From the NCBI GenBank assembly GCA_949878485.1, contig CATLAM010000005.1:23499-87498 (forward strand): a stretch of 64,000 nt of DNA. Reading direction: 5' to 3'. The notes under the pieces are model-generated. The model was not told the DNA's origin. It searched no databases and saw only the letters and a list, made by a program, of their open reading frames with translations. Below, in pieces: positions 56,080 through 57,234 of this stretch (positions are counted from its first letter, which is position 1; every line of letters begins with the position of its first letter). The DNA is from an uncultured Eubacteriales bacterium. Its GTDB lineage: Bacteria; Bacillota; Clostridia; Christensenellales; UBA1242. The translations under genes and the position numbers were made by a program.

Positions 56080-57234
56080 TTATTTTTTAGGTTTCTTTAT
56101 GTAACTTGAAACTTCGTTGTTATAGTCTTCAAATTCTTTCAATTCTTTCTTGGTCACACTTGGTGGCAAAACTTCCAACACTCTGTCGAAGTCTGCATTG
56201 GTCACCAAAATGACACTGTCTGTGGCAATTGCCTTTAAAAGTGGCTCATCTTTTGCACGGTCGCACAATTCTTCAATGTCTGCACCACTGTAAAGTTCTG
56301 TTTGCTCCACAACTCTGTTGACATCAAAATCTTTGTCAACTGGCACACCTTTAAGTGCCTTTTCAATCATAAATTTTCTGGCAGGAGCATCTGGCAATGG
56401 AAGATAAATCTTTTGAGAGAATCTTCCAGAACGCATTGCTGCACTGTCAATGTCCCATGGTCTGTTGGTTGCACCAAGAAGAAGCAAGTTTTGATTTCTT
56501 CCCGAAACACCATCTATTTGTTGCAAAAATTCGTTGACACGCTTGTCATTGTGTGTGTCAACACCACGCTTGCCAATTAAACTGTCCATTTCATCAATAA
56601 AAATTATGGCTCTGTCCTGCTTGTTGGCTTCTTGGAAAAGCGAATTAATGTTCTTTTCACTGTCGCCAACCCATTTGCTGACAATGTCAGAGCCTTTTAT
56701 GGCATAAAACTTTGCACCAACTTCATTGGCAATCGCTTTTGCAATCATGGTTTTACCTGTCCCTGGTGGGCCATATAAAAGCACACCACCACCAGTTTTC
56801 TTGCCATACATTTTATATTTATCTGGATATTTAATTGGGTTGATCATGCGAATAGTAATGGCTTTCTTGACATCATCAAGTCCTGCAACATCACTGAAAC
56901 TGATTTTAGGCACTTCTGCTGTTTGCCATTTCTTTACATCTTCATCTTCTTCAGAATTGTTGTTTTCACCCTTAGGTTTTTCGCTTTTTTCCACTTTGAT
57001 TGGTTTCTTGTTTAAATTGTCAGTAAGTTCCACCAAACGACGAGCCCTGTCCATTCTTACTTCTTTAAGTTTTCCTTGACTTTGCTTAGCCATTTGCATC
57101 ATTACTTCACTTGCCAACAAGAAATTTCTCTTGGCAAGAGCAATGTTCCCTTGTTCTTTTGCCTGCTTGCCTTTTTTCATGTAAAGGTCAAATTTGTCAG
57201 ACAAAACACTTATGCTTGTATTTTTATCATTCAT
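56080..57234 (-). CDS. Vps4-like AAA+ ATPase with an N-terminal MIT-like three-helix domain
   Basis: Walker A GPPGTGKT, Walker B IIFIDEMD, pore loop [13 protein letters not shown] (compare Vps4 SDLVSKW[ML]GESEK), second region of homology [29 protein letters not shown] (compare Vps4 GATNIPW.LDSAIRRRFE.RIYIPLP). The N-terminus [29 protein letters not shown]...[15 protein letters not shown] is MIT-like. The start was refined to ATG 57234. Confidence 0.85.
   Translation of the reverse strand: [384 protein letters not shown]

Follow-up and report, generated by a model that had tools for sequence, protein, structure and literature searches.

The window analysed here, a stretch of 64,000 nucleotides from contig CATLAM010000005.1 of an uncultured Eubacteriales bacterium, encodes on its minus strand an AAA+ ATPase (56080..57240) preceded directly by the gene for CC198 (57253..57849, minus strand), a protein of 198 residues for which profile comparison leads to the conclusion that it is a Snf7/CdvB-type ESCRT-III homologue. 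The ATPase probably drives, as its ATP-dependent motor, a bacterial membrane-remodelling module of the ESCRT-III type; the locus most likely encodes a bacterial ESCRT-III/Vps4-type machine whose ATPase belongs to a sister lineage of Vps4. This reading is carried by the domain layout of the ATPase and its intact catalytic motifs, by the strict linkage of the two genes, by the homology of CC198 to ESCRT-III and by the grouping of the ATPase with the meiotic clade of AAA proteins, which comprises Vps4, katanin and spastin.

The reading frame of the ATPase opens with a TTG at 57240 (386 residues), from which residue numbers are counted throughout; the ATG at 57234 (384 residues), given as the start in the original prediction, is the more likely of the two and probably the correct one, since it sits 10 nt past an AAAGGA Shine-Dalgarno-like site (57250-57245) and agrees with the N-termini of the homologues. 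Pfam detects AAA (E = 7.8e-43) and AAA_lid_3 (E = 6.4e-7), both matches being far above chance level, and the same scan upholds the predicted single AAA cassette without a protease domain; a transmembrane segment is likewise absent, as judged by eye only. The four motif segments quoted in the original prediction are all present, at residues 113-139 (the segment ahead of the ATPase core, ending in INPIKYP), 184-196, 256-284 and 349-373. On the minus strand, the Walker A motif GPPGTGKT occupies 56749..56772 (residues 157-164), pore loop 1 K-W-V-G (K189-W190-V191-G192) 56665..56676 (residues 189-192), the Walker B motif IIFIDEMD 56584..56607 (residues 212-219), and sensor 1 together with the second region of homology (SRH), beginning with GATNRPW, 56389..56475 (residues 256-284). 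Both Walker motifs, pore loop 1, the sensor-1 residue N259 and the arginines R270/R273 are invariant in 31 aligned homologues; the single AAA cassette, of the classical type and with its Walker motifs, pore loop 1 and arginine fingers intact, is as in Vps4/CdvC.

Ahead of the cassette, residues 10-75 (57016..57213, minus strand) are predicted to form a three-helix bundle resembling the MIT domain. The AlphaFold2 (AF2) model of the N-terminal 84 residues, computed with the homologue alignment, has a mean predicted local distance difference test (pLDDT) value of 88.7, with helices at 10-29, 33-53 and 56-75; in a Foldseek search of about 350,000 PDB chains, ranks 1-3 were taken by archaeal Vps4 MIT domains, 2w2u (chains A and B; E 0.019 and 0.044, TM-scores 0.63/0.70) and 2v6y, and the MIT domains of spartin, SKD1, VPS4A/B, yeast Vps4 and MITD1 recur within the top 50, interleaved with other three-helix proteins. 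Weak Foldseek E-values are expected for a bundle of 70 residues, and the Foldseek results were used as rankings only, no E-value being at 0.001 or better; the modelled bundle, at a best E of 0.019, would correspond to the N-terminal MIT domain of Vps4/CdvC. The Pfam MIT model does not match the ATPase. In BLASTP, residues 13-72 align with the N-terminus of a Vps4 encoded on a Thermococcus plasmid (see below), to which the ATPase is 30% identical over residues 13-329, the MIT region included. The bundle is followed by a charged variable linker (residues 76-107; 56920..57015, minus strand), as read from the sequence, which differs in length and composition among the homologues and beyond whose boundary at residue 75 the pLDDT drops. 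At the other end of the protein, a C-terminal helix (residues 346-375; 56116..56205, minus strand) corresponds to Pfam Vps4_C, and PF09336 is precomputed for many of the homologues. The profile check proposed in the original prediction gave a divided answer, as the cut-off of 21.3 bits is passed by the isolated C-terminal fragment (23.8 bits) but not by the whole protein (20.0 bits). A beta-domain insert is absent from the ATPase, as in crenarchaeal CdvC. The order of domains (MIT-like, linker, single AAA cassette, C-terminal helix) is that of Vps4/CdvC.

The CC198 family is characterized by an N-terminal MGLFKSK, a conserved core, an acidic variable linker and a conserved terminal helix. No match to CC198 was found in Pfam (Snf7 included), NCBIfam or PADLOC, and a profile hidden Markov model search of the PDB gave only chance-level matches. 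Direct profile-profile comparison with hhalign aligns CC198 with a set of 11 eukaryotic ESCRT-III proteins with a probability of 85% (P 6e-6); the 151 aligned columns are colinear and extend from the N-terminus as far as helix 5. Reversed-sequence controls gave P values of about 0.2-0.3; as a yardstick, ESCRT-III and PspA/Vipp1 reach only 37% against each other in the same setting. The set, made up of 11 CHMP/Snf7/Vps2/Vps24 sequences, was validated in that its profile recovers Vps24, CHMP3, Snf7, CHMP1A/B and CHMP2A from the PDB at 176-227 bits. Against PspA/Vipp1, neither CC198 nor CC211, the second conserved helical protein of the operon, exceeds a probability of 1.2% in hhalign, and no Pfam PspA_IM30 match was found for either. 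The AF2 model of CC198 (pLDDT 62.9) has helices at 7-48, 52-106, 112-149, 161-172 and 180-197, of which the tail helix is modelled with higher confidence than its surroundings. The confidence of the model is moderate, and its helix pattern would accord with the ESCRT-III arrangement of a helix 1-2 hairpin, helices 3-5 and a tail helix at the C-terminus. In the Foldseek ranking obtained with this model, Sulfolobus islandicus CdvB and CHMP1B take ranks 1-3, at E 0.14 or worse and hence not significant; CHMP2A/CHMP3, CdvB2 and Vipp1 stand lower, interleaved with other helical bundles, none of them significant either. The C-terminal helix (IDKEMEELRKKI; family pattern [IV]D.E[MLI]..[LI][RK]K[KQ][IL]) is amphipathic and, following an acidic linker as MIM1 does, resembles a MIT-interacting motif (MIM), but its M-E-E-L-R-K-K-I deviates from the L-x-x-R-L-x-x-L of MIM1. 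The MIT-like domain of the ATPase and this conserved MIM-like tail on the neighbouring CC198 would form a matching pair.

A tblastn search with CC198 of 72,556 plasmids returned exactly one match (E 1e-6), a 188-residue Thermococcus peptonophilus protein encoded in a Vps4 locus; no match was found in the phage collection. The two proteins are 28% identical over 148 residues in BLASTP (E 5e-17) and are aligned by hhalign with a probability of 97.3% (P 2.5e-11), and when the two are merged into one profile, the comparison with eukaryotic ESCRT-III gives 93.4% (P 2.5e-7). Pfam Snf7 matches the Thermococcus protein on its own, below threshold (4.2e-4).

The plasmid concerned (NZ_CP014751.1, 49 kb; positions 17914-25289 of the record, L082) carries a complete archaeal ESCRT cluster of the 'Main' type, with three ESCRT-III-like genes, a Ser/Thr kinase, Vps4 and a PP2C phosphatase, which is the composition that Makarova et al. 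2024 (PMC10936438) give for the 'Main' ESCRT system of archaea. Its Vps4 is a 393-residue AAA protein with an MIT-like N-terminus and a Vps4_C match of 35.8 bits, and two further small proteins of the MG[IL]L...F.K type are encoded near the 188-residue ESCRT-III gene. In the plasmid annotation, the ESCRT-III-like genes appear as 'hypothetical' only and the Vps4 as 'ATP-binding protein' only.

The linkage between the ATPase and CC198 was found to be invariant. Scanning one genome per species, full-length homologues of the ATPase were recovered at 41 loci, with 48-98% identity, in metagenome-assembled genomes (MAGs) of Clostridia labelled Clostridia, Eubacteriales, Christensenellaceae, Christensenella, Catabacter, Caccovivens, Coproplasma or Lachnospiraceae, with the exception of one 'Bacilli' and one 'Anaeroplasmataceae' MAG; the 98%-identical copy is in an 'uncultured Eubacteriales' MAG, and the next-best matches after the family are archaeal two-cassette Cdc48 proteins with 35-42% identity. 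In each of the 41 loci, even where ATPase identity is as low as 48%, the gene directly upstream of the ATPase encodes a CC198 homologue, so that the linkage to an ESCRT-III gene that typifies prokaryotic Vps4/CdvC is present throughout, and the ESCRT-III-like neighbour that the original prediction had supposed is borne out in CC198. A CC211 homologue lies upstream of CC198 in 40 of the loci, the exception (L027) showing no other upstream gene either, and tblastn detects a gene for an SPFH/zinc-ribbon protein further upstream in 39, the weakest case being L028 (25%, without the C-terminal zinc ribbon). In protein databases, the homologues are named 'hypothetical' or 'ATP-binding protein', barring two automatic Joint Genome Institute (JGI) labels on ATPases, one of which reads 'SpoVK/Ycf46/Vps4 family'.

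Within the window, the operon runs on the minus strand from 60124 to 52278 in the order SPFH/zinc-ribbon protein, putative transmembrane protein, TPR-like protein, CC211, CC198, ATPase and giant protein, the seven genes being separated by gaps of at most 12 nt or overlapping. The best promoter-like site in a scan limited to consensus matching, TTGCCT-18-TATAAT with a TG (60156..60185, minus strand), is just upstream of the first gene, and terminator-like matches on the minus strand occur only inside the giant open reading frame (ORF), with none between the operon genes. The window is bacterial chromosome, encoding DnaB, BipA, aminoacyl-tRNA synthetases and pyruvate formate-lyase, and the locus stands in conserved chromosomal synteny with DnaB, BipA, aminoacyl-tRNA synthetases and an ABC exporter.

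Two variations of the ATPase were noticed among its relatives. In nine distant family members (L024, L026, L031, L033, L034, L036, L039, L040 and L043) the ATPase ORFs are of 478-531 residues, with an extra C-terminal domain of 110-140 residues that ends in a motif like ...GIEEDDFGI and has no Pfam match; these loci have no full-length giant protein downstream, and some show weak partial matches. The closest relative outside the family, in a Christensenellaceae MAG (L042:214-2717), is a 382-residue single-cassette AAA protein with a helical N-terminus and 41% identity, followed directly by a 451-residue protein with an FtsH-like HEVGH metalloprotease motif that opens immediately with its AAA domain, an N-terminal membrane region being absent by eye; to judge from its sequence, this pair may be a soluble two-gene proteolytic system.

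The affiliation of the ATPase within the AAA proteins is less straightforward than its layout. NCBIfam models give 215 bits for CDC48 (D2 region only), 211.2 for CdvC, 194 for FtsH and 189 for PAN, all far under their cut-offs; the CdvC equivalog NF041006 is aligned end to end (residues 12-375 with positions 6-366 of 370), and with the AAA core alone the CDC48 model scores 216.6 bits vs 201.5 for the CdvC model. Per-domain phmmer scores are 198 bits for p97 D2, 184 for FIGNL1, 182 for yeast Vps4 and 180 for CdvC. The tandem D1-D2 arrangement with CDC48_N that distinguishes CDC48 was not found, the protein having one cassette, an MIT-like N-terminus and 215 bits vs a cut-off of 803. The first rank of p97 in the raw PDB ranking was rejected as evidence, as genuine CdvC and yeast Vps4 queries return the same ranking; p97 comes out on top because two-cassette proteins add up two domain scores. 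Raw sequence similarity does not settle which AAA clade the ATPase belongs to, and alignments and bootstrapped neighbour-joining trees (about 250 columns; scoredist and gamma-Poisson distances) were therefore built. The references taken from or checked against the PDB were the Vps4 proteins of Metallosphaera sedula, Saccharolobus solfataricus and Acidianus hospitalis, yeast Vps4, spastin, and the D1/D2 domains of p97 and CDC48A, of which M. sedula Vps4, yeast Vps4 and spastin are 100% identical to PDB entries over the AAA region; Escherichia coli FtsH (genome record), archaeal Cdc48 (fetched loci), Thermococcus Vps4 and five unverified sequences completed the trees. In the analysis as a whole, the reference sequences of VPS4B, KATNA1, FIGNL1, ATAD1, PAN, PSMC5, E. 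coli PspA and Synechocystis Vipp1 were unverified, and a CbxX reference dropped out of the alignment.

In these trees the ATPase family is monophyletic (100%), and the family plus the meiotic clade separate from Cdc48 D1/D2, PAN/Rpt and FtsH with 87-100% support, whichever of ten column or taxon subsets and of two distance measures was used. A grouping of the family with Cdc48 D2 obtained 0-1% of the bootstrap and one with FtsH or PAN was not seen, so that the placement inside FtsH or Cdc48 which the original prediction had named as contrary to it did not occur. With metagenomic relatives added, the family came to lie among uncharacterised AAA domains (63-69%), an assemblage whose sister is the meiotic clade, Thermococcus Vps4 included (58-76%), both together receiving 95-98%; a cluster look-up of ten of these relatives gave one generic functional name and no taxon. 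The discrete characters agree with a placement beside the meiotic clade. An N-x-P-W after sensor 1 is common to the family, the metagenomic assemblage, Vps4, CdvC and katanin, whereas the SRH of the family has R-[SP]-G-R-F (R-S-G-R-F in the window protein), the classical type found in Cdc48, FtsH and PAN; the metagenomic assemblage also keeps R-x-G-R-F/L, and the two 'x-G' residues are deleted in all nine meiotic sequences compared, not all of them verified, and in Thermococcus Vps4. The family therefore does not branch within Vps4, as its sister position to the meiotic clade inside an 'N-x-P-W plus R-x-G-R' assemblage indicates.

The arguments by which the original prediction had assigned the protein to the Vps4/meiotic clade fare unequally in the light of these data. 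The Vps4 strings given there are accurate when compared with yeast Vps4 in the PDB, but the SRH alignment needs a gap of two residues that went unnoticed; N-x-P-W is indeed shared, while R-[SP]-G-R-F sets the family apart from the meiotic clade. The pore-loop tryptophan, taken as a hallmark of the Vps4 group, is not one, since archaeal Cdc48 D2 has an identical SKWVGESEK and human p97 D2 has MWFGESE; the C-terminal helix does resemble that of Vps4, but Cdc48 D2 has an equivalent helix. Two of the four arguments (pore-loop tryptophan and C-terminal helix) are not diagnostic, and one (the SRH) hides a real difference. What stands of the assignment is that the protein lies on the Vps4/katanin/spastin side, with the 87-100% support given above, and what finds no support is its membership of Vps4. 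The sequence comparisons point to a sister or stem lineage of Vps4/katanin/spastin that has retained the ancestral R-x-G-R-F, rather than to an orthologue of archaeal Vps4; the ATPase is Vps4-like by domain layout and gene context, the original prediction is partly supported, and Vps4 orthology is not established.

How the module came to these bacteria bears on the same characters. It is conceivable, as a tentative proposal, that an ESCRT-III/MIT-AAA machine, functional and passed on vertically, belongs to a whole lineage of gut Clostridia (the Christensenellales-like genera Caccovivens, Coproplasma, Christensenella and Catabacter), and that its ATPase branched below Vps4/katanin/spastin before the SRH deletion. 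It is rather unlikely that the ATPase is instead a true Vps4 orthologue, received with the whole ESCRT-III/Vps4 module by horizontal transfer from a euryarchaeon (a Thermococcales-like 'Main' type or a Methanobacteriales 'adaptin' type being the candidate donors), and that the two SRH residues were secondarily regained. Such a transfer would accord with the finding that the closest plasmid relative of CC198 outside its family is a Thermococcus ESCRT-III in a Vps4 locus, with the closeness of the MIT-like domain to archaeal Vps4 MIT domains, and with the smaller taxon set, where the family stood next to crenarchaeal CdvC in 15-54% of the bootstrap replicates; moreover, an SPFH and zinc-ribbon partner is known in an archaeal ESCRT type (PMC10936438), and archaea-to-bacteria transfers of VPS4-like ATPases have been described in other phyla (Ravi et al., PMC11237479). 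However, the SRH deletion is present in all sampled meiotic members, Thermococcus Vps4 included, and absent from the family and its metagenomic relatives; the family joins Thermococcus Vps4 in 0% of replicates and, with wider sampling, is excluded from the meiotic clade at 58-76%. A recent transfer is further opposed by the conservation of the flanking genes across roughly half of the 41 loci.

Whatever its ancestry, the ATPase as motor of an ESCRT-III-type module allows a mechanism to be proposed. The SPFH protein and its membrane partners would recruit or nucleate filaments of CC211 and CC198 at the membrane, on its cytoplasmic side; the exposed, MIM-like C-terminal amphipathic helix of CC198 (IDKEMEELRKKI) would be bound by the MIT domain of the ATPase; the hexameric ATPase would draw subunits through its central pore by means of its K-W-V-G pore loops, and this extraction would disassemble and turn over the CC211/CC198 polymer. 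For Vps4 it is established that its MIT domains bind the C-terminal MIM helices of ESCRT-III and that ESCRT-III is threaded through its pore (PMC5716660); in Bacillus subtilis, YdjI/SamI brings the ESCRT-III-superfamily protein PspA to the membrane via the membrane proteins YdjG/H (PMC8581546), and the partners given for the archaeal Meth_adaptin ESCRT type include an SPFH, coiled-coil and zinc-ribbon protein (PMC10936438). By analogy with Vps4 and YdjI, the module is presumed to work by MIT-MIM binding, hexamerisation of the ATPase and disassembly of the polymer, and its cellular role is presumed on the same grounds. Membrane repair or maintenance would be the favoured cellular role because of the YdjI-like partner.

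Several observations weigh against an ESCRT-III/Vps4-type machine of this kind. The tail of CC198 departs from the MIM1 consensus, with L-R in place of R-L, and the likeness of CC211 to ESCRT-III is limited to its N-terminal quarter to third; the Pfam MIT and Snf7 models do not match the window proteins, the Foldseek E-values exceed 0.01 for both predicted structures (MIT bundle and CC198), and the pLDDT of the CC198 model is only 62.9. As to the ATPase, the score of 211.2 bits with the CdvC equivalog NF041006 is to be read against a cut-off of 650, the SRH lacks the two-residue deletion that defines the meiotic clade, and the neighbour-joining trees comprise about 250 columns and few reference taxa, five of them unverified sequences. 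Every member of the family is known from sequences and models alone, and roles in repair, vesicle formation and division are all compatible with the data at hand.

A different function for the same ATPase would be that of a Cdc48-like unfoldase acting for the SPFH protein, for the giant membrane protein or in general protein quality control, its helical neighbours being adaptors or stress proteins rather than substrates. The slightly higher score of the AAA core with the CDC48 than with the CdvC model (216.6 vs 201.5 bits) and the classical type of the SRH would fit this function, as would the giant protein with putative transmembrane segments that follows the ATPase in close relatives; relatives of the ATPase can, in addition, work in proteolysis, if the pairing of the L042 protein with a soluble FtsH-like protease is taken as a guide. 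Nevertheless, the giant protein is missing or weak in the distant loci, whereas the succession of CC198 and the AAA gene is invariant and that of CC211 nearly so; the ATPase has neither a protease domain nor the Cdc48 N-domain, and its MIT-like domain matches a MIM-like tail on the adjacent ESCRT-III homologue. A function of this type appears improbable. An anti-phage or conflict system with an IetA-like AAA ATPase, to which PADLOC IetA models (133 bits) and NCBIfam IteA (114 bits) might point, is very improbable and was rejected, given that these scores stem from the generic AAA core and are far under the family cut-off of 510, that an IetS-type protease and other defence genes are absent and PADLOC has no match for any neighbour, that the locus lies in conserved synteny among housekeeping genes, and that CC198 has no homologue in the phage collection and one archaeal plasmid match only.

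As an ESCRT-III/Vps4-type machine, the locus can be compared with several known systems. With the archaeal ESCRT-III/Vps4 systems (CdvB/CdvC of Sulfolobales, 'Main' type of Thermococcales) it shares an ATPase with an MIT-like domain, a linker, one AAA cassette and a C-terminal helix, without a beta-domain, and the clustering of that ATPase with small ESCRT-III proteins bearing C-terminal helices; it differs from them in its bacterial host, in the R-x-G-R-F of the SRH and in an ATPase outside the meiotic clade, and its operon lacks the CdvA, winged-helix (ESCRT-II-like), kinase and phosphatase partners and has SPFH/zinc-ribbon, small transmembrane, TPR-like and giant membrane proteins instead. 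The resemblance to eukaryotic Vps4 and CHMP/Snf7 lies in the domain order of the ATPase, the K-W-x-G pore loop and N-x-P-W, and in the colinearity of CC198 with ESCRT-III from the MGLF N-terminus through helix 5, with an acidic linker and a terminal amphipathic helix; the beta-domain, the Vta1-binding insert and an exact MIM1 are absent here, and the SRH is classical.

Among bacterial systems, PspA-YdjGHI (SamGHI) of B. subtilis likewise combines a soluble-looking SPFH protein with a C-terminal zinc finger, small membrane proteins and an ESCRT-III-superfamily polymer (PMC8581546), but the candidate polymers here are of the Snf7/CdvB type and not of the PspA type, and a dedicated MIT-AAA ATPase such as the one here is lacking in PspA systems (PMC7619361). 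The operons described by Ravi et al. 2024 as 'VPS4-like AAA+ with TPR-6TM protein' (ACB74714.1, Opitutus) also have a bacterial Vps4-like ATPase beside a large membrane protein, there with TPR repeats, here the giant downstream protein with its long, probably helical region and putative transmembrane segments; compared by description, snf7 is reported as displaced in those operons, whereas an ESCRT-III homologue and the ESCRT-III-like CC211 are kept here and are the invariant partners. The D2 domain of Cdc48/p97/VAT obtains the top per-domain score among the characterised AAA references (p97 D2, about 195-198 bits) and shares R-P-G-R-L/F in the SRH, an identical pore loop in archaeal D2 and a similar C-terminal helix; Cdc48 differs in its two cassettes and double-psi barrel N-domain, and in the absence of N-x-P-W.

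A 2025 review of bacterial and archaeal ESCRT-III states that a Vps4-like ATPase 'appears absent in bacteria' (PMC7619361), and Vps4 with Snf7-type ESCRT-III has been placed in archaea and eukaryotes (Makarova et al. 2024, PMC10936438; Liu et al. 2021, PMC8281802); in bacteria, only sporadic Vps4-like genes with snf7 displaced, and a Clostridium PspA paired with a tandem AAA protein, have been described (Ravi et al. 2024, PMC11237479). No description of the Clostridial operon was found in the full-text literature searched. The locus contradicts these reviews, being a conserved bacterial operon with a Snf7-type homologue, a MIM-like tail, a predicted MIT-AAA ATPase and a YdjI-like SPFH protein. 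If functional, it would answer whether bacterial polymers of the ESCRT-III superfamily ever have a dedicated disassembly ATPase, would provide an outgroup for dating the origin of Vps4 and of the meiotic AAA clade, and would represent an unstudied form of membrane remodelling (repair, vesicle release or division) in bacteria that are abundant in the gut of humans and animals. Should the tentative proposal of vertical inheritance also be true, the pairing of a Snf7-type polymer with an MIT disassembly ATPase would not be an archaeal invention; it would be older than the split of the meiotic clade or else an independent bacterial assembly. Bacteria would then allow ESCRT-III/Vps4 mechanics, in connection with an SPFH recruiter, to be studied in a minimal and tractable system.

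Of the remaining operon proteins, CC211 (57853..58488, minus strand; about 209-211 residues) resembles ESCRT-III in hhalign with its N-terminal 50-75 residues only, at 57% (P 1e-4) against the eukaryotic set and 67% (P 5e-5) against two Thermococcus ESCRT-III-like paralogues, the merged profile reaching 82% (P 1e-5, 51 columns). No match to CC211 was found in Pfam, NCBIfam or PADLOC or by tblastn of the plasmids, the PDB profile search remained at chance level, and hhalign detected no similarity between CC198 and CC211, which are not recognisable paralogues of each other. On this evidence CC211 is possibly a divergent ESCRT-III paralogue. In its otherwise variable acidic tail, a stretch at residues ~160-176, I-Y-G-x8-L-L-A-M-F-E, is strictly conserved; this IYG-x8-LLAMFE element may offer the MIT domain, or another partner, a second place to dock.

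The first gene of the operon (59279..60124, minus strand) encodes the SPFH (Band_7_1) protein with two C-terminal zinc ribbons, similar to YdjI/SamI, with Pfam matches to Band_7_1 (4.2e-13), Zn_Ribbon_1 (4.2e-16) and DZR (1.2e-9) and no transmembrane segment by eye. It is followed by a small protein of 139 residues (58848..59267, minus strand) with a putative transmembrane helix in its hydrophobic N-terminus (MLAFLIVILILILGVSAFYIW), recognized by eye; it has conserved counterparts in closer relatives and weak matches in some distant loci, and shows a marginal dapE-family match far under the cut-off. The TPR-like small protein that comes next (58495..58848, minus strand) shows weak TPR_16/TPR_2 matches (E 0.018 / 0.16) and is conserved only in closer relatives; its listed ORF (58495-58914) overlaps that of the preceding gene (58848-59267) by 67 nt, and its probable ATG at 58848 overlaps the upstream stop by 1 nt, a one-base stop/ATG overlap that suggests translational coupling.

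The giant accessory protein encoded 10 nt downstream of the ATPase (52278..56069, minus strand; 1263 residues) appears by eye to consist of an N-terminal zinc ribbon, about 800 probably helical residues, three putative transmembrane segments (~835-935) and C-terminal repeats of the GGLVG type; no significant Pfam match was found, a marginal match to Ocnus being far under the cut-off. It is full-length in 26 loci of close relatives (32-85% identity), and five distant loci have weak partial matches, three of them non-adjacent. Elsewhere in the window, two further giant ORFs lie on the minus strand, at 2029-20445 (6138 residues) and 30323-41710 (3795 residues), the product of the latter having no Pfam match at E <=1e-5, and an ORF of 70 residues at 62257-62469 on the plus strand is rich in Cys-Gly repeats (NCGCGCGCGNKGG..., SNCGCGCKN).

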